Shown here: piece by piece, positions 902-49,193 of the stretch | Position numbering within the stretch: position 1 is the first letter of the stretch | How the letters are laid out: each line of letters opens with the position of its first letter | From: Sphaerodactylus townsendi | Lineage: Eukaryota | Assembly: GCF_021028975.2 (NCBI RefSeq) | Contig: NC_059427.1 | Location: 124,806,001-124,870,000 of the forward strand | Direction of reading: 5' to 3' | DNA length: 64,000 nt | Made by a program: the position numbers and the translations under genes | The notes under the pieces: model-generated | Told to the model about the DNA's origin: nothing | Database searches by the model: none | The model's input: the letters and a program-made list of their open reading frames with translations, nothing else

Positions 902-1648
902 TTAGTCTTCAAACTCTCCCTCATCACTCTCCTCCTCCTGTGGTTGTTGGTCACCAGTCCACTGTAGAATGCTGTCCCTTAGGTTCTGCATGATAACGGT
1001 GGATTCCTTGTAGTACTCTAAACTAAGGGTCTCCAAGCCAGCGATGGCCATATCAAAAGCAGACCTTGCTAGTCTAGTTGCCTGTTGAGGGTTGTTGACA
1101 ACCTCATAGTAAAAGGTAGAGTAATTCAGGGCTAGTGCCAGGACCAAGGGATGAGTAGGTTCCATACACCATTGACTGATTTCCTGAGCCTCCCCATAGG
1201 CTGTCTCTGCAGACTTCACTAAAGTCTCTTTGGCATCAGGCAGGGCTACTTCAGCTAAGTAGCGATAGCTGTCTCCTTTCATTTTCAAGTAAAAGGCTCG
1301 GCTTTCATAATCTGTCTCACCGCAATGTTTCAATAGCATATTGTCTAACAGGCCAAGACTCTCCCAGCACTGAGTTTCCAGCTCTTTCTTAATGATCTCA
1401 CGGTAGGCTTGAGCTTGCTCTTTCTGCTTTCCAACAGTCTGCTCCACAGGGTACCTTAGCTGACGCCAAGAGGAGCAGTGTTGTCGTATTAGGAATGTAT
1501 AGGCCTCAGAAAGCAAGGTCCTTTCCTCATGGGTCAATGGATCCTTTCCTTCCATCACAAGCTGCTTCATGGCAGCAGCCATATCTGTGTATCTGCCACA
1601 TTGTTCTGCTAGCTGTGCTGCCTGCACCAGCTGCTTGCGACTCAGCAT
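902..1648 (-). CDS. Intronless, divergent 14-3-3 gamma-like protein (probable YWHAG-derived retrogene), 248 aa
   Basis: First ATG at 1648 (MLSRKQLVQAAQLAEQ, cf. gamma MVDREQLVQKARLAEQ); TAA at 902-904; no frameshift. Gamma-type segments: DMAAAMK, LLDN, CGETDYES, FYLKMKGDSYRYLAEVA, PTHP, LALNYS, WTGDQQ. The track start at 1795 is a TTG. Confidence 0.93.
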   Translation of the reverse strand: MLSRKQLVQAAQLAEQCGRYTDMAAAMKQLVMEGKDPLTHEERTLLSEAYTFLIRQHCSSWRQLRYPVEQTVGKQKEQAQAYREIIKKELETQCWESLGLLDNMLLKHCGETDYESRAFYLKMKGDSYRYLAEVALPDAKETLVKSAETAYGEAQEISQWCMEPTHPLVLALALNYSTFYYEVVNNPQQATRLARSAFDMAIAGLETLSLEYYKESTVIMQNLRDSILQWTGDQQPQEEESDEGEFED

Positions 1649-1743
1649 TGACAAGGAGAGACTGAAGATTTCAGACAGGCCTGTATGGATCAGGGGATGG
1701 GTTGTACAGTATGACACAGGTAACAAATGTTGACATAGGGACA

Positions 1744-1789
1744 GGAAAATTCTGGAATGTTCTAGGAAAGTTCTGGAACATTCTTGAAC
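1744..1789. promoter_or_regulatory. Heat shock element array (9 alternating nGAAn units)
   Basis: gGAAaaTTCtgGAAtgTTCt-a-gGAAagTTCtgGAAcaTTCttGAAc: 4 perfect units, a 1-nt slip, then 5 perfect units, about 100-140 bp upstream of the 14-3-3-like ATG. Confidence 0.75.
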
Positions 1790-2815
1790 AGCCAACCTAT
1801 TTCACACAAGCCGTGTGGCATTCTTTTGTCATGCTAAGTTTACAAAATTCTACTAAATGAATGATTTAGCAATCCTCCAGGGCAACTGATATGTGTAGAG
1901 TCTGAACAGAGGAGGTGAGTGTTAGGACAATCAAACGGAAATGTGGATTTAGCAGAGATGTGATTTAGCTGGACACTACAAATGACAGAATTCCAACGAT
2001 GTTGCAGATACTACACAATGACAGTATAAGAAGGCACAACACAACAAATCATTATTTGTAACCACTATAAGAAATGCAAAGCAAGGTGGTAACTTTTATT
2101 GGGCCACAAGTTATTTAAAAATTAATCAAATGAATTCACACTTATTGGTATGTAGCGATTTATAACCTTCTCCCCCTCCCCTTCTTTTTTACAAAGTTTG
2201 AAAGTGAGGGAATAATGATAAAATATAGTTCAAACAACAATAATCAGAGTACATGGAAGTAAAAAATACCAAACCACATAAAAAACCAACAACAATATAT
2301 GTGGACACCCCATCTTTAGTGATTTAAGAGAACTATGTATATAATGTAACCTGTTATGGCCTGATACCACAAACTGGTAAGAAATTAGACAAAGTAGTAC
2401 TTCCCATTTTCTTTGAGAGGGTGAAAGGGGGAGAGAGGGAGGTGGAATAGGGCAGGCAAGCAGTACAAGTCAGAAATTTAAACTAGTTTCATCCCTGGCA
2501 GTAGTCCACACTAGTGATTTATTTTATGTACATACCTCACCTTTCTCCCCAACAGAGGGAACCTAAAACAGCACACATATCCAAAGTGCATAGGATTAGC
2601 AGCCTCCAGGTGGGGCCTTTACTACTCCCGGCGGCCTTGAGCCTGGCCTTTGCAGGTATAGGGTGGGGTATAAATATAATAAAATAAGAATTAATCCATC
2701 TGATCTTCAGACTACAGAGCTTGGTTCCCTTGAAGGAAATAACAGCTTGGAAGGATGGGCTCTGCCTGAAGTAACACATCCCAGTCTAGTTCTCTCCCTT
2801 TATCAAACTCTATCC

Positions 2816-3271
2816 CAGTGGTGGCAAACCTATGGCACGGGTGCCAGAGATGGCACTCAGAGCCCTCTCTGTGGGCATGTGCAAACAAAGTTGCACCCCC
2901 CCCCCCACACACACACACACATATCTAGGCTGGCCTGGGCCACTGGGCTCAATTATTAGCATTAAACCTAAGACCTAGTTTTGGGGACGCAGTGTAGATA
3001 ACCCTGTTAAGCGCTGTTAAACCCCACTGATTTTCATACGAAGAACTAAAGCGCGATCCTTTACCTGCGAGTAAGCTCGGTTGCTTCAAAGCAAAGCCAC
3101 CGACTACCACCAAGCTTACTCCTGAGTAACGCACGCCTGGGAGCCAACCGTTTTTTTCTAAACTAAAACCTCAGTATTCAGGTTAAATTGCCGTGTTGGC
3201 ACTTTGCGATAAATAAGTGGGTTTTGTGTTGCAATTTGGGCACTCGGCCTCGAAAAGGTTCGCCATCACTG
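2816..3271. mobile_element. Non-autonomous hAT DNA transposon
   Basis: TIRs CAGTGGTGGCAAACCT...AGGTTCGCCATCACTG; perfect 8-bp TSD CTCTATCC at 2808-2815 and 3272-3279. Confidence 0.9.
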
Positions 3272-3707
3272 CTCTATCCTCTCCAGGCATCATCCCCAGT
3301 TATCCAGGAATTTCACGAACCGGAGTTGGTATTCTACATTGCACACACTTATCCAGAGATACATTATAAATTATTAATAGATGGGATTTACCCTTGCGCG
3401 CGCGTTTCAGAAATTAAGCCAGGGTTGGAGGGATCTCCAATAGCAACAGGGTTCAGAGGAACGAGGAAAGCTCTTTGGTTGCAAGTTCGAGGGCAGGATC
3501 CGAGTGCTTTCCGGAGACGACGGCGTTGGAAACAGGAGGGAGGTCTCTCCGCGAGAGGCGGATCCCGGGACTGCGAGACAGATCAATGGCGGAGAAGCGG
3601 CCATTCGGAGAGGGGCAAAATGGGGGCGTTTCTTCGGGCCTTATGTGGCGCGGGGTTATTTCCGCCCCCGGAGGCGAACTCTTAACTTGACGCGGCCGTC
3701 CTCTGGG

Positions 3708-7815
<4,108 letters not shown>

Positions 7816-8744: not shown

Positions 8745-16185
<7,441 letters not shown>

Positions 16186-24100: not shown

Positions 24101-27100
24101 TGAGGATAAAAGGGGTGAGAGGGAGAACTACAGACATTGCCTGGAAATTTTTGGAGGAAGGTTAAAAATGTTAAAGATATATATCAAATAAATGAACATG
24201 CCCCAATTAAAAGTGTTTCAAAAGTTGCTGGCTCTTATGACTGTATAGAGAATTTGAGGCACAGTCCAGGATACCAGTCAGAGAGGCTGCCTTTCTTGTC
24301 CTGGGATTTTAATTTATCTACACTGATCTTGCAAAAACCCCTCTCAACCCCAAAAGCTTATTTTTAGAATAGTACGATTAGCAGAAATTGTACGCATTTG
24401 AAAAGTGTCATCCATGTTGGCTTTATTGGCTTTAGAATGTGCACATTGTCCCCACACACACACACTTTCAAACATGATCTCCACTCACCTGTTGAAGGTC
24501 TTCTAGCCGCCTCTTGAGTCCTTCTACCTGCATGCTCAGCTGGCTCTCCCTTCCAAGTACCTCAGCCACAGCTTGTTTCTGCTGCAGGCAGTAATTCTGT
24601 GCCTCATCGCGGGACTGGGCCATCAGACGCAGCTTGTCCTCCAGGTGCTCCAATCGCTGTTGCTGTGAACAGCACAGAGGAAAAACACAGCCCAAACCCA
24701 CAAAGTTTGAACCTCTCTCAAACTAACATGAGCATCATGGACGTTTGTGATAGGAAGGTGAAGAAAGTTGCCTTTCTGGACTTGCTTACATTACATTTCA
24801 TGACATTTTGTTTCTCCTGCATCACAGCATATTTCCTGACCTCGAGCCACCATGAAGGTTTCAAGATTGTCTAAGTATTTGAATTTAGAAATGAGACCTA
24901 AAAGCTGTATTTTCAGAACACAGTAAACAGAACTGCATTTAAATACTAAGTATGGATATCGTTGCCATATAAATGTAGATGGTAGGAAGTAATGCAAGTT
25001 AATTTTCCTATACGAACCTGAATTTCTATGCTAGGAGCAAGATGGCTTGACCATATTAGACCCATACTGAAACGAGGGAACTGGCTACCAATTTAAGCAT
25101 AAGCATAAGCATAAGCATTTTATTGTCATTGTGCACGCACAACGAAATTTACAGCAGCATTCCTCGATGCACACAATTTCAGACTCATACATCATCATCC
25201 TCCACCCATCCCTACACAGCCCCAAATACATCAATATGAAGCAGCGGAGTTTAGCATAGCCACAGCTCTAGAGTAGAAGCTGTCTCTAAACCTCTTTGTC
25301 CTAGTTCTGAGGGCCCTGTATCGTCTGCCAGATGGTAGCAGTTTAAAAAGAGAGTGTGCTGGATGAGACGGGTCCCTCAGAATATTTTGGGCTTTATTTA
25401 GGCTTCGGGCATTATAGATTTCTTCCAAGGAGGGGAGAGGGCAGCCGATAATCCTTTGTGCAGTGGTGATCACCCTTTGGAGCGCCTTCCTATTCGCCAC
25501 TGTGCAACTGGAGAACCATACACAGATGCAGTAGGTTAGGACACTCTCTATAGCACAGCGGTAAAAGGACACCAGGAGTTTTCCATCCAGTTGCTGCTTC
25601 CTTAAAAGTCTCAGATAGTACAGTCTTTGCTGGGCTTTCTTAACCAACGCGGCAGTCTGTACTCCCCAGGTCAAATCCTCTTTAATCATAACGCCCAGAA
25701 ATTTAAAACTAGCCACCCGCTCCACTTGATCTCCATTTATAGTCAAGGGATGAATTTCTGAGGTATTCCTTCTATAGTCCACTATGAGCTCCTTTGTCTT
25801 GTTAGTGTTAAGAACCAGGTTATTTTCCCTGCACCATGAGAGCAGTCGGTCCACTTCATTCCGATAGGCAGACTCATCCCCTCCAGAGATGAGCCCCACC
25901 ACCGTTGTGTCATCAGCAAATTTGATAATGGTGTTACTATGATAGACAGGAGTACAATCATATGTATAAAGGGTGAACAGTAAAGGACTCAACACACAGC
26001 CCTGTGGCGTTCCCATATTTAGAGTAAGAACTGAGGAAACCCGATTTCCCAGTCTAACCCTCTGGGAACGTCCAGACAAGAAGTCCCTAATCCACAAACA
26101 GATTGAATTTGCTACAGACTTCAGTTTAAAGAGATGATTACTGCCTTTAAAGCACTTAACAAAGTGAGGTCCACAAAATTCATGAATGCCTCTTCCACTG
26201 TGGACCTGTGCATCCTCTTAGATCTGCCCCTAAATTACTGCAAATTGCCTGTCTTTGTGGCTGGCACCAAGGGCCTCTGTTAAGAAACAGGTGATATCAG
26301 TAGCTGCACTATCAGTCCATTTCCAAGGCTGTGTGCTAAAACCTCTTCCCTATTCACTCTTAGAAGAGCCTGTATGTTTGTTTCAGAGGAAATTTGGTAA
26401 AAATTCTTCAGTTGACATCAATTTTCATGACTGATGGTGTACTTATTAAACTACTCAGGATTACTGTATTAAAAGAAAGAGTTTATTTAGAGATTTATAT
26501 CTGGTTTTTTAAGTCTCATTGGTGTTTACTTTAATTCCTGATGATAGCTGCCTTCAGCCTTAATGGTGGGATTTGAGGATTTAAAAAAATGAATAAATCT
26601 CCCTGGAATATTGAGATATCAAAGTGAAATTTGGCACAGACATACAAGTCACAGTTCTGTGTTTCAGGTTCAACTACCAGTTCAATCTGCACATCCAATT
26701 TCAAAAGGAGGAGAACAGGACAAAGTCTGCCTTGAAGATGGAAATCTAGAAAGCGCTTGTGTGCGTTTTGAACATTCCATGTTCAAATTGGAGCTCGATC
26801 TCTCAAAGGGGTTTAGCAACATTGTTATGCAATATTTCCCTTGAGCACTGAGATATAATTCTGAAATCTGGAGCATATCTTTATGACATAATTGTCTACT
26901 TGAAGGTTGAACCACAGCTCAACCTGCATATCTACAGTTGAAAAAGCCAGGAAAGTATAAAATGCACATTAATGCAATATCGCCCTTGAATGCCAAGAAA
27001 TTTGGGAATGATGGCATAATTTTCCATTTTAACTTCAAACTACAGCTCGACTCTCAGGCCCACTTTTATGGAAGTGAAAGGGGGAGGACAGACAAAATAC

Positions 27101-30100: not shown

Positions 30101-33100
30101 ATTCCTGAGCAGGAGGTTTTTGTCATTGGCAGATGAAAGGTCACGTTGAAGCCTTGCTTCTCGATCTGCAGAATCCTACCAACCAAGCCAGTAGAAGAAA
30201 TTCACTCATCGGTTTCCTTTCTGTATCTCCCCCAACCTTTCTCCACATCTTAAGTGTTGGTCATGCATCACCTTCCATGTCACCGCTCAACCAGCTCCTT
30301 TCCCAACCAAAAGCTTCCATTCCTGGACCTTCATACGTTGCCACAGATCTGCTCACTGGCAACATCACCCCCAGATGACCGCAAGCCATTCATTTACAAA
30401 ATGTACATCTCACCTTTCTTCCCAATCAGGACCACCACACCTACCTTCTTGAGCTGCTGCAGCTCCTTGGCCTGGCTCTCCACCAGTCTTGCCTGCTCCT
30501 CTTGTGTTGTACTCAGCAACTCACCCAGACTATGGATCTTCTGCTCCGACATGGCCAGGGCTGCCTCAGTCATCTGGAGCCTGCAAAGCACCAAGTGTTG
30601 TGTGAGTCACTCTGACCAATCTAAACTTTGCTATCAAAAACCCTGAGCCTGCAGCTGCATCACCATTCTATAATCTGGGTGCATTTCAAGGTCACTTACA
30701 GCAGGTGCTTGACCTTTTCAGGAAGCATGCTCCACATCAAATCTCAAGTGTGCAACAGTACACATACAGCCTCCAGTGCCTTGGTGTGGTTTTGTCTATG
30801 GCCTACTAAGCTGAGCAGACAGCAATGCAACACAGGAGCAGCAAGCAGGCAGGAACACAGATCTGATTCCACACCAAAGCAAAACCCACAAATGCATCCC
30901 ATTCAGGAGTGCTCTGCCACCTCTGCTGTCTGTTGCACCCTGAACGCAAGTTGTCCAAGCATCTTGTTTGCATGAGCAGAATGGTAAGCAAGAGCAAACC
31001 TCTCCCTTCTCTTCTAAAGTTAGGTTACATTGTTGCAATCTCACAACTGTATATTCCAGCTCACACTGTGTTCCAGAGTGTCTGCACAAACATGCCATTT
31101 CCATTCTGCCTACAAGTTTTTTCCCCTGCTCACTCCCCTGCCCCTCCAATGCGTGCTCAGTCTGTCTCACAGAGATTTGTTCCTCCTTACTTTGCTTTAA
31201 GTGAGTTCAGCATAGAATGCCGTTCAGTCAGAGCTTCCTGCAGCTGCCCGACTCGTGTTGTTGATACCCTGCATGGAGAACAGAGGCAATATGCAGAGAT
31301 GGGACCACCCATAAAGTATGTCTCACATCAAGAGCAGGACAGGGAGAAGAATATCACACACACCTGTTGAAGCGGGTTATCTCCTCTCTCTGTCTGTCAA
31401 TGGTGTCCATCAGATCCAGGAACTGAGAAGCACAGGCATGAAATGAACACCGAGAGTTTGAAAGGTGAGCCACCAGTAGTCAGATCTATTCCAGCAGTGC
31501 ACTAGGACAATCTCCACATGGGTGAGAAATAATTTTCCAAGTCACAGCAGGAAAGTTCCTCCCAGAACTCCAGTAAAATGTGGAGAATACCTTTGTTTAC
31601 TAAGGTATTAAGTTTTTCTCTTGCCCTTCTTCCAGCAAAGGTCACATGGCTCTCTTGCACATTTTAACTTCACAACAACCCTTTGAAGAAGACTAGGTAA
31701 CGGCAGAATGGCTGGCCCAAGGTCACTGTGCCTTGTGGCTGAGCAGAGATTTCAACTTGGGTCTCCATGGTCCAAATCTCAGGCACCTTCCACTACAATG
31801 CATTGATCTGTTCCTTGGTGAAATGCACAGGCTTATCTAGGGAAAATGTAGCCCGGTGCAAAATCTGTCGTGCCCCCCACCCCACCCCCACATATGGGCA
31901 GTCACCCTCTCCCACCATGACCAAACAACTTTTTTTGCACCAGGTCTTGAAGTCAGTGTACGGACCCAGGGGGAAGGAGGAGGGGTGTGGGGGTGATTTT
32001 CCGCCCTTACGTGACTAAATGGCCGCAGCCCGGGGACATTTGACCCCATATGTCCCCCTGGAACTGAAATGTTTTATCAGTCAAAAAGACAAGAATGAAC
32101 TCCAAGACGCTGCAAATCAAGTGGTAAGCTCCGAAAGCATCTTGTTGTGTATGGGAAAACACAGGAGTCTTTCAGTTAAATAAGCTGGGGGGAGGAAAGT
32201 TTAAGGAACTAACTAGCTCAGTCCAGAACAAAGTGGTCTCTTTCTCAGTAAGCAGTTCAGCCTTTCTCCAGTTGCTAGCTAGTTTAAAGGAGATATAAAC
32301 AGAACCTGCTCCCCACCCGCAAATCCTATATGTCAGGATGGCTTCCTCTGACAGCTCATGAAAGATCACAAAGATCGCAAGGGATGCAACATTCACTCAA
32401 GCACTATGGTAAATAAATCCTACTAGCAGGAACACCTCAGTGATGCAAGCTATTTCTTGGTGCCATTTCTAGAAGAAGACAGGGCAGCTCCACCACTCTG
32501 CAGTGCTTTTCTTGCTACATCCTCAACAACTTTTGCCAGGCTGAGTACAGTCACAATAACTAACCTGTTTAGCTTTCTCTTCCTTCAAGCACAGCACCTC
32601 TTTACTGAGCACACGTGTCATGTTATGATTCTTGCAGAGGATGTTCTGACGCTCTTGATTGTGTTCCATAGCTTGATCTTGGTTGTAAAGAAGCAAAAAG
32701 TGAAATCCTTTCCGATAAGTTTCCTAAACTTCATGAGTCTGCAGTTTACCCAGACAGTTTACCCACCCATGGGAAACTTAACAGTTAACATTAGCATGGT
32801 CTCCAGGCACCAAAAAGAAAGAAAACTTTTGGACAAGATCCTAGTTTTGTATTCTATTTTATCTCAAGATTGATTGGATGGTGACCTTTTGCCCACACCC
32901 TTACTAATGACCTCAGATGAAGATAAGTGAATATGAGACAGCCTGGAATCCAGAACTCTTAACATTCAGGGGGTCGCTCACCCACAGCCTTCAGGATGTC
33001 ACTGGGTACATTGTTCCCTGCCAACTCAAGTTGTCGGAGAACCCGGTTGGTATGCAGGCAATTCAGGAGGGCACGTCCCCCGAGAAGCCCAATGGTATTC

Positions 33101-36100
33101 CAACGTAGATCTAGACAAGAAACAAAGTACCATACGTGGCAATCAGTCATACATTTGATTGCACTTTTCTCAACTTCTGGACACAGGAAATGGAAATCGA
33201 TCCTTTTCGGAGAAGTTAAATGTAAGTACATTTCATGGAAGTTCTTCATTTTAGAGATGAGGCAGCACACTAAAGCAATCCTATGTACACTTATCTGCGA
33301 TCACCTCCACTGAGTCAAGAAGCGTTCAATTAGTTTGCCCCTGAACTTGTTTCCAAGTGGTTTTATGTGACTATTATAGTGCAACTGCTTTATGCTTGAC
33401 TACATTGCAAGCTGCATTGAAGACCTTTGGCTGGAAATGTCGCCGATAAACATTCTAAATAAAATAAACAACTTGAGCCAATAAAGTTGGCCACAGGCTT
33501 GGTGTGTAGTTGCATATTTCTGTGCTTCACTTGCACTTACTTGGTGCAACTGACTAAGTTGAATCCTTCAGAATCACTTCAATACAGTGGAACCTCGGTT
33601 TTCGCCGGTAATCCGTCCGGCAACACTCGGCAAAAACTGAAACCGGTGAAAACCGAAGCTACACTGTTTGCGCATGCACTACGCAAACAGAGTAGCAAAT
33701 TTACACAAAAAGCGTCAATTTACGCAAATGGCGTAGCCGAAAACCGAGGCGCCCGGCAAAAACCGAGGCAAAAAAACGGCCAGGGGCAACCAGCAAAAAC
33801 TGAAACAGACGAAAACCGAAGGCTACGATTACCAAGGTTCCACTGTATTACCTGCAAAGAGACTGTGACTGCCCCATCACCTTGCTCAGTCCTTTACTGC
33901 TGCTCTGTGGCACTTGGTGGGTACAGATCATGAACTGTGGAATCGACTCAAGTCCTTACCAAGTTCCTGTAGACTGGAATTGTTTTTCAGAGCCATGGCG
34001 AGCTCGCCTGCCCCCTGGTGGTTGATCTGATTATTGCGCAGATCCAGGCATTGTAGAATACCATTTGCTCCAAGCCCTTCACAGAACAAGGCAAAACTTT
34101 CCTCCCAGATACCCAAGTTGTTCCATTCTAAAGTGAGGCTGTGGGAAGGAATCAAAATCAAAGACAAATTCAGACAGCGACTTCAGGACTCAAAACATAG
34201 CCAGGCCACAGCAGTAATCAAGGAGGGCCTGAGTCACCCCTCTGCCATGCCTGGATCTACAGATAAGGGTCCATTCTCTCCAGTTACCAACTACATTAAA
34301 ATAGATTATCAGAGGGAGACAAGGAAGCAACCAGGGATCCTGCCTGGATCCAGCCCCAGCTGAGAATCCCCCTTACTCTGGCTTCTAACTCCCAAACCAT
34401 CAGAGAGAGGACAGAAAGCAACAAGGAACCTCTCCATCTTTCATGGACTCAGCTTGCCTGAGAAACTGCCCCATCGTAAACTTTGTATTGAACTTTAATT
34501 ACCACTCTTATTACATTTTGATTCATGAGCCAATTTGCATCAGAAAAGCAGAAGCAGCAGCTCATGCGATAGGTTGTTTGTAGGATTCCAGCTCCTGCCA
34601 CTGAGGGAAGATGTGGTGACCGTCAATGGTGACAGAGGCAACAGAGTGTGGCACCAACAGGACCACGCAGACACACAGGTACTGAATAGACAAAAGAACC
34701 TGCGCTGGCTACTTTTGTCATCACCAGCACCATTCCCCTCAGCAGCTCCATCCCTGGCAAGCTGAACTCAAGGCCTCAGTGGCTCCCCCAACACTTTGTT
34801 ATACCCTCCAATTCAGACATAACTTTCACTTTAACGGCACAAGCCAAAATTTCCCAGCAAGCCACCAGGTGAGGAGCTGCTGTTGCAAAGTAGGATAAAA
34901 ACACCAGGAATAAATAATCAAGAACAGAACCCTGACTTTCCCTGTTCAGTGCACAAAACATTAAGATTCCTTCTCATCTTAGCAAACAGCAACAAATAAT
35001 ACCATTCCCATTTAGTGGCACTCTGACTCTCCCCATCACCCCCAGGGTCCAAAAAAGAGTCTCAGCTCTTCTGCCCATTTCCCAATCTTCTCACCTCCTG
35101 ATAGACTTGTTTTGTCTGAGCAGTTTGCCCAGGGCTTCAGCTCCCACAGCTCGCAGGTTATTGCCCTGAAAGAGACAGAGCCTAGTCAGTCACCCACTGC
35201 TTGGCTGCTTAAACAGGAATATCACCTACGCAGGAAGTTTCTTCTGTTGGCAGTCCAAGGAGAGGACTGGCAGTGGCCAAAGACCAAGGTTTGGCCTTAG
35301 AAAGGGCCAGGCCCAAATGCTTGGGGCAGAACAGACTCACCTTCAGGTCCAAGGATTTCACAACTGTGTTTGTGCAAAGTCCACAAAGTAGTAACTTAGC
35401 TCCTGAAAAGAAAAAAGGGTACATTCATTCCAACTCTGGCCTCTCATTCCCCACCCACTGATAATAGGCACCAGTTTGTAATGGCAGCATAGAGATGACC
35501 ACAAGCATTTCCTGTCCTTAAGGGAGTGACTGGCTACCAATCACCCTGACAGCAGAGAAGCCTGAGCTCCACATAGCTCATTTATAGGCCACTGAAGTCA
35601 ATGGGCTTAGAAGGCTATCACTGTGCTCAGGATTGCAGCGGGTGGGTGTTGCCACTGCCCCACATCCCCTCAAGGCAATGATAGGCCTACTACTACTACT
35701 AGACATCATACTCACAGTCCCTGAGGTTAGAAACTCATGCTGAAAGCTGGTTCTTGCACCCAGTGCTAAATTTCTCGCTCACATAGTGCAGCTGCAGAAC
35801 TGCAGAGTCTGTTCAGCTCTGCTAGACAGCACACGTTTTGAGCAGTGGGAGGGTTTTTCAGGGTTCCCATCTAATCTTCTCTGGGGCTTAGTACAATTGA
35901 TAGGATGAAGTTAACAGGATTTAAAATGCCACTCACACATCCATCATCATTCTGAATATTCATCAGGCCCTTTCCCTTTGTTGTCATTCCCATCTGCAAG
36001 AATGCTCAGCCATTTCTCCTGAGTCTTATATTGCACCTCATCATACTTCATTTTATTCTTTTCCGCAGCACAAGAAAGTATTCTTATAATCAGGCTTTAC

Positions 36101-42700: not shown

Positions 42701-45700
42701 AACACATCCTTACAATTAAGGATTTTTTCTGTTGTTTCATTTGGGCCACCAGGTATTATATTTCTTTGTTGCAGTGTTTGCATTTTGCCTTACCCATAGC
42801 TAGAGGAACTTCATTAAAATATTCCCAAACTGGGTCTCTTTTATGGCCTGCTGCCATTATAGGTTTTCTCCTCAAAGAAGAGAATATGATAAACCTCAGG
42901 CTACACATACAAAGATCCCAGACTTGTGGAGTATTCTGCTCAGAAGGGTTCATTTTTACTGCTTGTCCCTCCCTCCACACACTGCGCTCCTTGTGCAGAT
43001 CTATAAACATAGCACTTAAGAGGTAAGAAGTTGATTCTGTGCAGTGGTGGGATTCAAATAATTTAACAACTGGTTGTTTACAAGTACCATTTTAACAACC
43101 GGTTCTGCCAAAGTGATGCGAACCTGCTGAGGCCCACCACTGATTCTGTGTACATAGATTTGCAAAGAAACAATGAGGCTCAGGTCTTTTTCTCTGTATG
43201 TTCGTTTTATAACATTTTTGCTGTGAAAAGGCATGTTATCTGTACAGTTTTGAAAAATGCAGAACCAAACATCTGTGATAATCTTATAGATAGAAAAATT
43301 GCCCCAAACAAACTTACAGAAACCTTTAGAAGAGCATGACCTTATGAATAGATTAATGGCATTCATTTACCAAAAAAAATAAACATGCTACATAATTAAT
43401 AAAATTAATTATTTCATGGTGAATAACTTTTGGGCTATAATGTAAACTGGGCAAAGGAAAGGGACTTGAGAATAAAATTGCCCATTTCACTATCCCTTTG
43501 TATAAAACTATGGTACTACTCTTCTGTTTACTGCATTTCAGAAAGAATGTCAGGGAAGTAGAAAGGGTTCAGAAAAGGCAAACCAAATCAGGGAGTGGAA
43601 ACCCCTTCTTTGGGTGAGATTGTTTAATTTAGGAATAAAAACTAATCTATGTGGCATGACAAATGATTTCAGTATGCCCCAGAATTTGTCATCCCCCCCC
43701 CCCCAGAAAATTGTAAAGTTCTTTTCCAGCATCACTGTATTGAGGACAGGTGAAAAGAATAGCACCACATTGATTTGCAGAATTTACTGCCTCAGAATGT
43801 GAGGATGGTCTGTAGCTTGGGTGTTTTTAGAAGCCAACAGTATAGCTAAGGTTCAGAGCTATCATACCTCCAGATGCAAATTGCTGGGATGGGAATTGAT
43901 GGGAGGGCAGCGGGGGTCTGTTGCCTTCTTGTCTTGTTTGTTAGGTTTCCGCAAGCATCAGGCTGGCCACTTTGGAAAATAAGAGGCTGGATTTATAGCA
44001 AGGCTGCTCTAGCTCACAACTTGCGGTTCTTTGGCTATCTTGCTCTGCTCAAATAAAGTTTCTTATTGGTTATCTTCCAGACATCCAATATATTACTCAA
44101 ACATATGAAATAACCTACATAGAGATTTTTAAAAACTGAACTTTGCACTCTTCAGAAACAAATCCTTCAAGTGAGATGTAGTATATTAGTAAAATTCTTC
44201 AGAGCACTTCTAGAAGTCTGCAGCAGGTAGCGCTAGTGCCTAATCAATCTTGTATTTATCTCTTTCCAGAAGGTACACAGTATAAAAACCATACAGCTGC
44301 CTCCCTGCGCAGAGTGCATTTTTAAAAGCTACATTTTTCTGAATCACAGGGCAATGCATTTTAGGTTACCCTGATCTTGCGTAGAATAAGGCATGTCTCC
44401 TAAACCCCTTAGATTTTAAAGTCACACATTTAACTCTGTGCTGGGTTGGATTCAAACTGCCTGTAGTCATCTTTTAAATAAAATAATCCTATTAGCTTAG
44501 TACCAATAGAGATCCTCCAGGAAAACCTTTTGTTTGGCATGTACCTACCAAACATCCTGATTACAGCTATATAGCTACAGTCTTGTCAGAACCCATGCCA
44601 AGATCCTTTCGATCCTTTCGATTCGGTTAGGTCAGTTATCTACTCAAGCTAATATATTCCATTTGGACAAAGCATCTCAAAAACCTGTTGAGAGAAAGAG
44701 AGATGGTTTATGACATTTAAAGTACAGTTTAATTATTTGAGTTGGAAAGGATCTTTCAGGCCATCCAGTTCAACCTCTTCCAGAAGCATGACTCCTTTGA
44801 CACAGATCACTTTTTGAAAGCCTCCTCTGTGTATTCCCAGCAATGTAGTCCTCATGAGCCTTCCTGTTACCAGAGGAGTGGAAAACAACCCCAAAATGTA
44901 AAAACAAAAACAAAAAACATTTTTCTGACAATCCCTTAGATATCTGGTAGCTGCCCTTGTGTCCCTCTTAAGCTACAAGGGCTCAGTTCCTTCATTTTTT
45001 CTCATGCCATATGCTACAAACTTGAAATTATCTCTGTTACTCTCAATCATCGCTGCTTTGCTGATAAATGATGAGAATCCTGCTTAAATTGGGGAGAATA
45101 ATACTGAATCATCTAGTCTAGCTGAATTTTACTGATTTATTTGTTGAATTAATTTATACCCTGTCTTTCTCCATGCTGGCAGGGGCTGATGGGAATTGTA
45201 GTCCATGAACATCTGGAGTGCCATAGGTTCGCCACCACTGCCCTAGTCTGAGTCTCTTAACCACTACACTACACTGGCTGAAGAGTATTAAATCAAGTTC
45301 TTGCTTTTATCTTGCATATAGCACTTATGTAACACAACACAAAGCTGTGTTTTCCTTTGACATGCATTGACCTATATCCTACTATATCCACTAAGCAAAG
45401 TTGGAAGCCTTCATATAATTTGATGAACCTCACTTCACCTTCAGTAAAGGTTGTTTTTCCAGAGGAAGAGCAACTGAAATTGGAGGGAAAAAATTTAGGC
45501 TTGTGGAAGGTTTCAAACCTGGTTGGGTGGATTGGTAGGATATTGGCCATTATTTATACAATACACAATGCACATTCTGCCTTCTTTAGCCAAGTGTTAG
45601 GTTGTTAGTTTATACTGCAGTTTTCTAGCTCACGTATTCAATAACACAAGTGGCATTTCGCTCACCTTCAGTCTTTTAATGGGGCTTTTAACCCTATTAT

Positions 45701-48700
45701 GTAAGCTGCCCTGGGACTTTGGTGTGGGATGGGGTATAAATGGAATAAATAAATGTTTTAGGCTCAGTTGATGCTGCTTATTAAACGCATTCTGATCCTT
45801 GTCAGATTAACAGTTGCTAATTCAGAAGTGGTAATTTGCGAGAACTCTAGTCTTTCACCTTCAAAACTACATTTTATTTCTCTCAAGTGTGTAACAGTTT
45901 TATTTTTGTACCTATGTACAAAGCTTATGCTAAAATTTTATCTCACTTCACTGGATTTTCTTTTCTTGAAAGCATCTATAGCTAGCATCACTCGGGATTG
46001 TCCAAGTGGAAATTCATTTTAAAATTGCATTTATCCCTGCCTTTCTGCTTTTATCAGGACCACAAAGGCAGCTAATGAATTTAAAATATACATAACAAAA
46101 CATTAAAACAAAATAAAAGCACATCATTAAAACCAAACTAAAATCCACATGTGAAAACATAAAAATAATAAAACAGGGTAGGAAGGAAGGATAACTGAAG
46201 GAACTCCAGATGAATCAAAGAGGTCTTTACAGGTGGATGATGGTAACAGGCAAGGCTGGGGAAGGAGTTCCAAAGTTTTGGTGCCACAACCAAGAAGATC
46301 CTCTTCCAGTTTGCTACTCACCTAATCTCAAAAATCAGGGCACCCAGAAGGACCTTGGGAAATGACCTTATCAGTCAGGGAGTTTCATAAGGGAGTAAGC
46401 GGTGCCTTCAGGAGAAATGAGAACCTAGAAATAGAGAACCTTGATTAACTGGAGGATACCAATTCTAATAAGCCAGAATATGAACCAAAGGCATGCTTTA
46501 TTTTTTTTGTAGGTATTTCCATCCTGGTTCTATATTTTAACAAGGAATTAAAAAACTGAGTATTAAAGAGTGCTTCTCCCTAACTTTCATGAGCCAGAAC
46601 TTGTTTAGATGCAGGAAGTGCTATGTTCAGTTGGCAATTCTCCCTGTATGTATATACACACATACACAAATACAAACGGCAAGAAGAGTATAGGGTGAGA
46701 TGGGGGAGCACTATCTGATCAAAGCTGATGCCACCATAATTCTGCTGGTCTCCAAGGTGCCACAAGACTCTTTGGCTATAGCAGACTAAGTGGTTACCCC
46801 TCTGGAATGTCCCAGCATGGTCTTCAGCAGACAAGGCTGTTGGTTGGAAGGACGAAGTATGGCTGATTCACAAGCGTTCAGATCTCAGCAACAGAAAAAG
46901 GGGTGGAGAATAAGGGCAGTGATGTGGTCTCTCTGTGGGGATGGAAGGCTGGCTGCCATGAGTTGTCCTCATCGCTGTCTTTCTCCTTGTGAATAAGATG
47001 CAAAATGTGTAAGGCAATATGTTTTATTGGGTCCATTTCTTTTGATGCGTTCCTACGCCAGCATAAGTCGATCTCATAAAAGAGATCGCTTTACCTATTC
47101 TATATTGCTTTGAAATGGAAAGACAAGGAGATTCACTTTTTCTCCATTAACACCCGTTGACTTGATTTCCTTTCTGTGCAGGAAACTGTGAACAAGCTGC
47201 TCCAGCACCACTTCAAAGATGACAAAACACAAGGTAATTGCTTTCCCTTCTGTCTCAGTACAGAGGCCAATTCCTGCTAGAGGTCTTGCCAGATTTCTCA
47301 GCAGAGAGAAATCAGGCTCTGGAACATAGGTGTCGAACTCGTGGTCCTCCAGATGTTATGGACTGCAGTTCCCATCATCCCCTGCCAGCATGATGGGAAC
47401 TGTAGTCCATAACATCTGGAGGGCCGTGAGTTTGACACCTATGCTCTGAAATCATGCTCTGGAACATCTGAGATAATCAAGATCCATGGTGGCTGCCTGA
47501 TGATTCTTTGTGTGGGGCAGACAACTGTGGTGTGGTGAGAGGGGCTGATGAGTGCTTGTCTCCAGGTGACTCTGTGTTTTCCTCTTCCAGTCAGTGATGA
47601 TGCCCTGTTGCTGGTGGCAGAATTGCTGAAAGTGTTTGTTCGAGGTAAGTCGTCAGGAGAACACATTCTGATGTGTGGAGTGGCCTTCATTAGATGGATG
47701 ATCTGGAGTCTATAGAAGCATGGAATGTAGTGTCGAATTTGCTGTACTATGGGATTTTTCTTTTATATTTTGTAGTTTTCCCGGTCATCTAAAAGGCTGT
47801 AACCAGCTAAATTTTGAAATTAAAGCTTCCAAGCCTTCCAAAACCTTTTTCCCTTCTGTTCCTTTGCCATGCCTCCTTTGGCTTACATACACCTTCCCAT
47901 CCCAGTTCCTGGAGAAATAGCATTAGGTTTAGATCTATCAGTAATAAATAAGTATGTTACTGCTACCTTTATATTATATTCCAATTGCAGAATTTGGTTT
48001 TGGTTTTTGGTGCAGAATTTGCGCAGCTTAAGTGGAATACAGGAAGTAAATGTTAACTATATTTTTACCAGACTCTACAAGGCACAGATGTGTTTACACC
48101 CACTTTTAACTCTCTGGGGTCCTTACAGGGTAATCCTTCACACGGGTGGTGCTGCGCCACCGTTCCAGGCCCATGAACTGGTTTTTTGCTCTGCTGTCCC
48201 AGTACTGACAGTGGTGTGGCAAACTGCTTAGGAGGCAGCTCAACCGCACTCTTGCTGTGACATCCCTGGCTGTGGCAAAGCTGTGTCCCCACCACCACCA
48301 CCACCACTGGGATTACACTGCCAATGCTAGGTGGTTACCAGTGCAATCTTGAGCAGAGTTGCATCCTTCTACACTTATTAGAATAGGGTTGCCAACCCCC
48401 TAGGTGGTACCTGTAGATCTCCTACTATTACAGGTGATCTCCAGATGACCAATATCAGTTCCCCTGGAGAAAATGGCTGCTTTGAAGGGTGGACTCTGTA
48501 CTCTGCTGAAGTCCCCTCTGCTCTCCAAGACCCACCTTCCACAGGCTCTACCCTCCCCCCGCCCCAAATCTCCAGGTGTTTCCCAACCTAGTGTTGGCAA
48601 TCCTAGTTTGGGATTGCATCAAATAAAAGGAGCATGGTATTTAAGCTGGTATTGTGCTTCCTGGTCGCTAAATGAAATGATGAGTGAGGAGTAGTAACGG

Positions 48701-49193
48701 GTGAGAATCCAGCAATCCTTACCGAGAATAAGCTCCAATATTTATATTCTGAATCACTGTCTTTTTTGCAGCAGGCAAGCAAAAATCTCTGTACAAATAA
48801 CTGCCCTTTCAGAAGCCATCAGGGCTTCCTCAAGGCCATGTCTCCGCCATGTCCCCTCGCAGTTGCATTCCCCACTTATGTCCGTCTCTGTTCTGCAGAG
48901 GCTGCAGCCCGAGGAGCCCGCCAGGCTCAGGCAGAGGACCTGACCAAAGTGGATGTGGAGCACGTGGAAAAAGTGCTGCCCCAGCTGGTATGTCAAGCAC
49001 AGTTCAGATTCCTCAATTAACAGGATAAGGATGTGAGCAAAGCCATCTTAATCCCCTTCCTTCTGAGGGATGTTTGGTTGGTTAGTAATGTCTTTACTGG
49101 GAACATGAAGTCAAGAAAATATTACACAATTTGGGGAGAGTGCCTTGTTGAAGTAAAAATCATCCTCCATTTCCGCAGCTTCTGGACTTCTAG
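39779..49193 (+). CDS. CENPX: Centromere protein X (MHF2/STRA13), 5 exons, 82 aa
   Basis: Exons 39779-39817, 47182-47233, 47591-47644, 48899-48987, 49179-49193. [73 protein letters not shown]. Confidence 0.96.
39926..40076. mobile_element. Palindromic PIF/Harbinger-like MITE
   Basis: GGCTCCTTCCGCACATGCAGAATAA...TTATTCTGTATGTGTGGAAGGGGCC with 3-bp TSD ATG. Confidence 0.8.
40472..40695 (-). mobile_element. CR1 LINE 3' end
   Basis: CATAAGAACATAAGAA tail plus CTGCTGGATCAGACCAGAGTCCATCTAGTCCAG, typical of squamate CR1 3' ends. Confidence 0.75.
41205..41501 (+). mobile_element. Squam3/Sauria-type SINE nested in an older GC-rich repeat (about 40908-41698)
   Basis: Near full-length SINE with CTCTTCTTC tail; flanks start CAGCCCAGTTC and end GGATTGGGATG. 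Confidence 0.85.
41952..42137. mobile_element. SPIN/URR1-type non-autonomous hAT element
   Basis: GTGGTTCTCA...CCCTTTAATACAGTTCCTCATGTTGTGGTGACCCCCAACC...GGGTCGCAACCCACAGGTTGAGAACTGCTG; 8-bp TSD CTCTAAAT on both sides. Confidence 0.88.
42740..43010 (-). mobile_element. hAT transposase 5' remnant (BED zinc finger)
   Basis: MAAGHKRDPVWEYFNEVPLAMGKAKCKHCNKEI*: VW-YF plus CxxC BED signature, truncated. Confidence 0.7.
43042..43142. mobile_element. hAT MITE, same family as 14668
   Basis: CAGTGGTGGG...CCCACCACTG; TSD ATTCTGTG. Confidence 0.9.
47325..47443. mobile_element. Palindromic hAT MITE in CENPX intron 2
   Basis: CATAGGTGTCGAACTC...GAGTTTGACACCTATG; TSD CTCTGGAA/CTCTGAAA. Confidence 0.88.
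48384..48605. mobile_element. hAT-like MITE with TAGGGTTGCCA ends
   Basis: TAGGGTTGCCAAC...GTTGGCAATCCTA; no clean TSD seen. Confidence 0.75.

Follow-up and report, generated by a model that had tools for sequence, protein, structure and literature searches.

The window, by which we mean the whole stretch of 64,000 nucleotides that was analysed, is vertebrate DNA in which exons of DCXR-like, RAC, LRR and CENP-X type were recognised (Pfam matches in 7 of the 100 open reading frames scanned), in the gene order of human 17q25.3, where no 14-3-3 gene is known. Head to head with the DCXR-like gene lies an open reading frame for a divergent 14-3-3 protein (Table 1). The PF00244 model matches this frame at 237 bits (cut-off 33.2) over model positions 2-223 of 223, which places the protein in the 14-3-3 family; its closest solved relatives are 14-3-3 gamma (E 4e-77), and it is the same as P0032 (Sphaerodactylus townsendi, UniRef) over all 248 residues. 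The P0032 gene model adds a 19-residue N-terminal extension via a 116-nt intron (1681-1821, minus strand), with its ATG at 1819-1821, and this extension is absent from the other family members.

A CpG island lies at the start of the DCXR-like gene (observed/expected CpG of about 1 over 3250-4000), and between it and the 14-3-3-like gene stands a high-copy interspersed repeat at 2816-3276, present again from about 5958, whose contig depth is in the millions in runs X2 and X3 and which is transcribed in X6; X2 and X3 behave like genomic DNA. The DCXR intron holds a tandem repeat of 12-15 nt units (4281-4362), and the X3 contig is broken at 4297-4354. Further along, a LINE-type reverse transcriptase fragment (25234-26217, minus strand) and a BED zinc finger (42759-43091, minus strand) are likely of transposon origin.

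Table 1. Features of the window and of the 14-3-3-like protein that it encodes (residues in zeta numbering).
Feature	Position	Strand	Evidence or remark
Divergent 14-3-3 coding region, gamma-derived, intronless	902-1648	minus	248 aa + TAA; PF00244 E 2.5e-70; orthologues
3' UTR	723-901	minus	Read ends heap at 723-725, just past AATAAA at 730-735
5' part of main exon with likely splice acceptor AG (1681-1682)	1649-1682	minus	Read starts or ends at positions 1683 and 1693; P0032 model splices here
Probable small upstream exon; donor GT 1795-1796; 5' boundary approximate	1797-1900	minus	Depth about 9 in bin 1801-2000, 21 reads over 1892
Helix 1-2 dimer face: K9A, A16C, E17G, D20T; LAE motif, R18, D21 kept	1583-1621	minus	Alignment and modelled interface residues
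Helix 3 groove face: N42T, V46E, K49T, N50F, G53R, R56C; R60, S58 kept	1463-1531	minus	6/8 invariant groove sites changed
Helix 5 groove floor kept: F117, K120, M121, D124, R127, Y128, E131	1250-1294	minus	0/7 changed in the window
Helix 7: I166L, R167V, G169A, V176T; L172, N173, E180 kept	1103-1150	minus	Alignment
Helix 9: S210Y, D213E, L216V, L220N, N224S, L227Q; I217, D223, W228 kept	959-1015	minus	Alignment, codons
DCXR-like neighbour gene, head to head; end approximate	3708-6300	plus	adh_short match; spliced contig in run X1
RAC3-like exons	about 8800-10440	minus	
LRR exon, LRRC45-like	32962-33300	minus	
CENP-X exon	48688-49017	plus	

Transcription of the 14-3-3-like gene

Run X6, which is unstranded, comes from a related organism and was about 6% read, has a depth of 260-360 over 801-1600, falls to 0 in 201-600 and in 2001-2400, and covers the DCXR exons at about 10; the 14-3-3-like gene stands at roughly 180 RPKM in it. 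The ratio is reversed in run X1, where one 121-base piece at depth 2.7 compares with DCXR at 17, and these opposite ratios suggest that expression differs by sample. RNA support consists of the one run X6 and the one low-depth fragment in X1, and the joint at acceptor 1681-1682 is not among the read junctions listed. A promoter shared with DCXR was considered and is rejected for now, X6 reads being 0 at 2001-2400 and 3401-3600 with no exon near the CpG island in that run. With its frame, its site rates (see below) and its RNA in X6, the window copy has the properties of an intact, constrained and transcribed retrogene.

A squamate-wide family

A first search returned 10 further sequences at 72-92% identity, all of them named squamates, followed by a drop to 50%; a profile search and a search seeded with the python sequence recovered these ten again, with no hit in the gap from 53% to 72%. 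Cluster look-ups contributed 12 more members, for a family total of 23 sequences with orthologues at 71-92% identity, which at 50% clustering forms one top representative far above all others. Variation and rate counts were made on 19 of the 23; the four set aside were a truncated form, a fragment, a one-residue variant and the longer twin of the window protein; 17 rows were used for the comparisons with diverged 14-3-3s and of kept and diagnostic sites, and 16 family rows entered the tree. The family spans geckos, a cordylid, skinks, an amphisbaenian, lacertids, monitors and other anguimorphs, anoles, a boa and a python, and its members are labelled in databases just as 'gamma-like' or similar. 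Protein searches, which were word-based and lossy enough to miss full-length amniote gamma clusters as well, found no member from colubroid snakes, gekkonids or eublepharids, agamids, tuatara or non-squamates, and the missing colubroid, gekkonid, eublepharid and agamid copies could be lineage losses or a product of the lossy search. There is no stop or frameshift in the 19 full-length family sequences, as drawn from protein databases that show unbroken copies only. The gene is a conserved, transcribed, squamate-wide paralogue, which is beyond what one sequence could show the earlier reader.

Residue changes in the groove

Residue numbers are those of zeta, although the zeta record in the alignment, P0012, itself has T42. 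On the minus strand, the helix 3 changes fall at codons 1517-1519 (N42T), 1505-1507 (V46E), 1496-1498 (K49T, ACA), 1493-1495 (N50F), 1484-1486 (G53R) and 1475-1477 (R56C, TGC), and two helix 9 changes at 983-985 (L220N) and 971-973 (N224S). The sequence-only reading had named these same substitutions; the frame does translate into the helix 3, 7 and 9 segments that it quoted, and the zeta alignment and codon read-out show the substitutions to be correct together with both of the codon coordinates that it gave, those of K49T and R56C. The alignment likewise bears out its statements that the K120, R127, Y128, N173, W228 and S58 equivalents are kept and that the changed positions are normally near-invariant: among 54 canonical sequences K49, N50, G53, R56, L220 and N224 are present in all, N42 in 53 and V46 in 51. 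Its list can be extended by I166L, G169A, V176T, D213E, L216V and L227Q in the groove and by A16C, E17G, D20T, K85I and E87K in the dimer region.

The hydrophobic face of the groove comprises L172, V176, L216, I217, L220, L227 and W228. Neither this face nor the backbone asparagine pair is intact, with N173, L172, I217 and W228 kept and N224S, V176T, L216V, L220N and L227Q changed. The pocket K49-R56-R127-Y128, which binds the phosphate in canonical 14-3-3 proteins (PMC8455551, PMC10847541), reads T-C-R-Y in the window and so departs from the canonical one.

Across the family, R56C is found in 19 of 19 sequences. K49T occurs in 4 of the 19 (K or R stands at 49 in 15, K49 itself in 14), position 53 is R in 3 and Q in 16, and N224S is seen in 4; K49T and G53R, tried as family hallmarks, were rejected on these counts, and the alignment identifies K49T, G53R and N224S as recent lineage-specific states, not family features. 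Y128F is present in 9 members and K120I in 1. G53, L220 and L227 are absent from all 19 and V176 is kept in only 2, while R127, R60 and N173 are each present in 19. All 17 rows compared retain R60, F117, M121, D124, R127, E131, L172, N173, E180, D223 and W228 with their neighbours changing, and C56, L166, A169 and E213 are fixed in the family. Two new cysteines, A16C (C17, 1598-1600) and R56C (1475-1477, both minus strand), are invariant in 19 of 19, and the boa and the python add a third beside C58.

K49 has been lost in geckos and in anoles, and both times a basic residue has been gained at one turn's distance (R53 and K46), a coincidence with a chance probability of about 0.2. This pairing gives suggestive support, and no more, to the earlier proposal that G53R might partly replace the lost charge.

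Constraint on the groove

The groove was defined as 32 positions of our own choosing, for which published work confirms K49, R56, R127 and Y128 and gamma N178 and V181. Within the window protein, 14 of 31 groove sites are changed against 26 of 96 other invariant sites (p=0.05) and 58 of 98 variable sites; when scored by family majority the figures are 12/31 and 28/96 (p=0.22). At ultra-conserved sites the groove has 8/24 changed against 2/25 (p=0.03), and for losses common to 17 of 17 family rows 5/24 against 2/25 (p=0.19). Within the protein, groove enrichment is weak to marginal (p 0.03-0.25).

Comparison with nature is sharper. From the best-scoring 150 sequences against the family profile, which are not a random sample, 149 diverged 14-3-3 representatives were examined and 10 were dropped for coverage; the 139 that remain have a median of 1 groove change, with 13 or more in 2, R56 kept in 135, and K49 and R56 both absent in 1. 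When 60 of the 139 are matched for change at non-groove invariant sites, the median is 2 groove changes and a single one reaches the 14 of the window protein, which is strong evidence from sequence comparison that change in this groove exceeds natural 14-3-3 divergence.

The changes are also unevenly placed: 6 of 8 groove sites on helix 3, 5 of 9 on helix 9, 3 of 7 on helix 7 and 0 of 7 on helix 5, or 11/17 on helices 3 and 9 against 3/14 on helices 5 and 7 (p=0.03), an asymmetry that we saw only in hindsight. Counted on an assumed squamate topology, the number of steps per site is 0.48 for non-groove invariant sites, 0.58 for the 19 kept groove sites and 1.46 for variable sites; the 13 rewritten groove sites, at 1.62, behave like variable surface sites (p=0.76), and of the 19 canonical-kept groove sites 14 have no step on that tree. 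Constraint appears to have been lifted from the helix 3/9 rim, with the helix 5/7 floor kept, and the surface-like rate of the rewritten sites fits relaxation better than a new pocket. The description of the groove as selectively rewritten holds up against other natural 14-3-3s, but only weakly within the protein itself, and the pattern is better explained if the helix 3/9 side no longer has the protection that the groove enjoys in other 14-3-3s than by a directed rewrite.

Simulation of a neutral copy, without indels, left a stop-free frame in 22%, 6% and <1% of cases at 0.05, 0.1 and 0.2 substitutions per site. Neither a disabled frame nor neutral evolution, the marks of a processed pseudogene, is what the family displays: its frames are open and its site classes differ three-fold in rate. 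Substitutions spread as in neutral decay, which the sequence-only reading had named as an outcome that would speak against it, are likewise not seen, core sites being three-fold slower than variable ones and the frames stop-free.

Predicted fold and dimer

The AlphaFold2 model has nine helices at a pLDDT of 84.7 (three of five models >81, two about 60), and Foldseek places it against gamma at TM 0.88 and 55% identity, with the gamma structures PDB 3UZD, 2B05 and 4O46 as the best sequence and fold matches. An unfolded protein, another outcome named beforehand as contrary, is thus not what is predicted. The homodimer prediction scores 0.72 against 0.07 for the best control, with at least 96% contact agreement between runs and pLDDT of at least 91, although 14-3-3 dimers have already been solved and the pass may be memory. 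Among solved homodimers, 21 of 30 microbial ones and 17 of 29 eukaryotic ones passed the mark for a dimer; of the corresponding monomers, 0 of 23 and 0 of 30 did so, and of eukaryotic homodimers without an older solved relative just 1 of 7; the score is best taken as likeness to solved 14-3-3s, not as binding. On these models, fold and homodimer are predicted to be like those of a normal nine-helix 14-3-3. Dimers of 14-3-3 proteins form through helices 1, 3 and 4. C17 (A16C) lies inside the modelled dimer interface. Three inter-subunit salt bridges are described for zeta (PMC8455551), among which R18-E89 is kept here and the other two are lost (Q at 5; T, I, A or S at 85).

Origin from YWHAG

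In a tree of 40 rows the family is one clade (100/100) that groups with gamma (91/81, not starred), and the main squamate groups are recovered within it; the outgroup is not monophyletic, a long stem can be misplaced, and the position within gamma is left open. The family stem carries 1.28 changes per column, compared with 0.005-0.24 in the crown. Scored at diagnostic sites, the family majority agrees with amniote gamma rather than fish gamma by 6:0 (1 neither), and rather than mammalian eta by 10:1 (12 neither). Gecko gamma (P0100) exists as a separate, intact protein whose sequence equals that of turtle and bird gamma over 218 residues; the family majority matches it at 121 of 202 residues, well away from the near-identity of a YWHAG orthologue. 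Since members are 82-95% identical to their own majority, most of the change from gamma must have come early.

Eight mis-started gamma and eta records (P0102, P0104-P0106, P0108-P0111) share a single break immediately ahead of residue 30, which points to an exon boundary in the parent that the window frame reads through. YWHAG is a two-exon gene. The coding region of the window copy is uninterrupted and lacks the parent intron, as far as the indirectly placed boundary indicates. Taken together, the gamma affinity, the separate intact gecko gamma and the missing exon boundary argue for retroposition before the squamate radiation, and it is likely, from sequence, that the gene arose by retroposition of YWHAG. 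A repeat scan around the copy made no target-site duplication or poly(A) relic evident. An ancient gamma/eta ohnologue was also considered and is disfavoured by the 6:0 score for amniote over fish gamma and by the missing intron.

Discussion

The reading that we favour, while giving it somewhat less than an even chance, is that an old YWHAG retrogene has become a phospho-blind 14-3-3 dimer, which engages few partners, and these independently of phosphorylation, via the kept helix 5/7 floor. Canonical phosphopeptide binding is probably lost or much weakened, and the earlier forecast of lost or changed phospho-ligand specificity is well founded as a prediction, R56 being missing from every family sequence counted and R56/R57 mutants of canonical isoforms losing their phospho-clients (PMC8988012, PMC2442201, PMC10926215). 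R56A/R60A zeta loses clients and keeps its dimer (PMC2442201, PMC10926215), and R57E gamma loses phospho-recognition and still binds an O-GlcNAc client (PMC8988012). Either R57E or K50E is described as disrupting phospho-recognition, and O-GlcNAc binding as needing N178 and V181 (PMC8988012; bioRxiv 10.64898/2026.01.18.700201). It is the near-invariance of the helix 5/7 floor that leads us to favour a phospho-blind dimer with few phosphorylation-independent partners.

In the course of events that we propose, YWHAG would have retroposed beside DCXR before the squamate radiation, and a burst of change would have cost it R56 and reshaped the helix 3/9 rim. Canonical phosphopeptide binding would then have been lost, leaving R60, K120, R127, N173, E180 and W228 to a phosphorylation-independent ligand, and the protein would presumably act in a tissue-restricted way. 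Testis expression is a general prior for retrogenes, and testis is named here solely as such. Helix 5/7 residues form internal hydrogen-bond networks, and those that are kept may be retained for the fold instead of a ligand. Judging from the alignment, weak phospho-binding is possible for the proteins that retain K49 (14/19), R127 and R60. An additional (eighth) 14-3-3 isoform with altered ligand chemistry, that is, a reader which ignores phosphate and recognises another mark (O-GlcNAc, or an unphosphorylated acidic motif) through the helix 5/7 floor and has its own cysteine-containing dimer face, strikes us as unlikely; if real, it would be the first vertebrate 14-3-3 to separate phosphorylation-independent from phosphorylation-dependent functions.

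The protein might also be a natural dominant negative, pairing with canonical 14-3-3s into half-blind heterodimers and so, wherever it is abundant, weakening the binding of clients that need two sites. Engineered R56A/R60A zeta binds no clients, still dimerises and is dominant-negative (PMC2442201); here the LAE motif, R18, D21, S58, Y82 and E89 are all kept, the sole surviving bridge R18-E89 is an epsilon-like pattern linked to heterodimer preference (PMC8455551, PMC11480210), and abundance in X6 is high. However, the interface has changes fixed on either side (A16C, E17G, I65V, K85T, E87K) that could equally insulate the protein from canonical partners, the self-dimer models well, and the invariant exposed R127, N173 and E180 are left unexplained, and we regard this role as rather unlikely. 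We think it improbable that the groove is dead and that the protein persists as a chaperone or structural dimer which works through its outer surface, independently of phosphorylation. Such a role would suit the surface-like drift of the rewritten sites, the loss of K49, K120, Y128 and N224 each in some lineages, and the groove-independent chaperone activity of 14-3-3 (PMC8455551), but it sits poorly with the 14 of 19 canonical-kept groove sites unchanged on the squamate tree and with the basic residue gained near both K49 losses (chance about 0.2).

A weak or narrowed phosphopeptide reader, using K49 (or R53/K46), R127, Y128 and R60, could draw on the K or R at position 49 in 15 of 19 sequences and on the constancy of R127, R60 and N173, and the loss-of-function mutants in the papers cited all reverse a charge or combine two substitutions, R56C by itself not being among them. 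It appears quite improbable nevertheless: R56 is retained by 135 of 139 diverged natural 14-3-3s, geckos and anoles have neither K49 nor R56, a state found in 1 of 139, and G53, L220 and L227 are gone from the whole family with V176 nearly so (kept in 2). A decaying processed pseudogene is the reading that we hold to be highly improbable. The gene is intronless, change is about as frequent in its groove as at other sites, intronless human zeta pseudogenes with near-intact frames exist (PMC11049341), and databases hide broken copies; against this stand a frame open across six deep squamate lineages, the three-fold lower rate at core sites, the rarity of intact frames in neutral simulation, and abundant RNA with a poly(A) signal.

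A conserved, abundant vertebrate paralogue without R56, catalogued automatically as 'gamma-like', is the natural counterpart of mutants that were engineered to be phospho-blind. Through it one can test what selection keeps in a 14-3-3 that is unable to read phosphoserine, and whether lineages tune 14-3-3 signalling by a pseudo-reader subunit, as with pseudokinases. We found no published description of the squamate paralogue in the literature searched, subscription papers and supplements lying outside it; two lizard gland proteomes have sigma as the only 14-3-3 in their main text, and the ESM Atlas returned generic 14-3-3 clusters only.

Comparison with known 14-3-3 proteins

The paralogue is a 14-3-3 by sequence and predicted fold, but without the canonical phosphate pocket it is classed neither as a canonical phospho-reader nor as YWHAG. 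It shares with 14-3-3 gamma the parent lineage and the kept helix 5/7 groove floor and core, but is only about 55-60% identical to it, whereas amniote gamma is invariant; it has lost gamma R57 (zeta R56) in all members, has no coding intron, lies beside DCXR and has an altered dimer face. The engineered zeta R56A/R60A, gamma R57E and Drosophila epsilon K50E/R57E resemble it in the loss of the helix 3 arginine, and these mutants keep fold and dimer, as is predicted here (PMC2442201, PMC8988012, bioRxiv 10.64898/2026.01.18.700201). Unlike them, the paralogue is natural and long conserved, with R56 replaced by C, R60 kept and about a dozen more groove changes. The human YWHAZ processed pseudogenes are also intronless 14-3-3 copies, but these are 78-97% similar copies that are called pseudogenes (PMC11049341), whereas the squamate copy is old, constrained and strongly transcribed.

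Among natural proteins, Cryptosporidium Cp14a and Cp14b and Plasmodium Pf14-3-3II are divergent 14-3-3s that either do not bind consensus phosphopeptides or are missing conserved binding residues (PMC3154893, bioRxiv 10.1101/2020.01.14.906479), and the dimer face of Cp14a is likewise remodelled and contains a cysteine (PMC3154893). They differ in being protist proteins with <30% identity, and Cp14a keeps the Arg-Arg-Tyr triad, whereas the squamate paralogue has lost a triad residue. Atypical binding is described for T. brucei 14-3-3 as well (PMC3006207). These natural precedents are protist proteins, and the squamate paralogue is a vertebrate gamma derivative. Elsewhere in the diverged set, the unrelated P0183 (JGI/MMETSP, 321 residues), a 14-3-3 with an extra N-terminal region, has R56C and L227Q independently among 12 groove changes, and the other natural 14-3-3s P0201 and P0221 have 14-15 groove changes with R56 kept.
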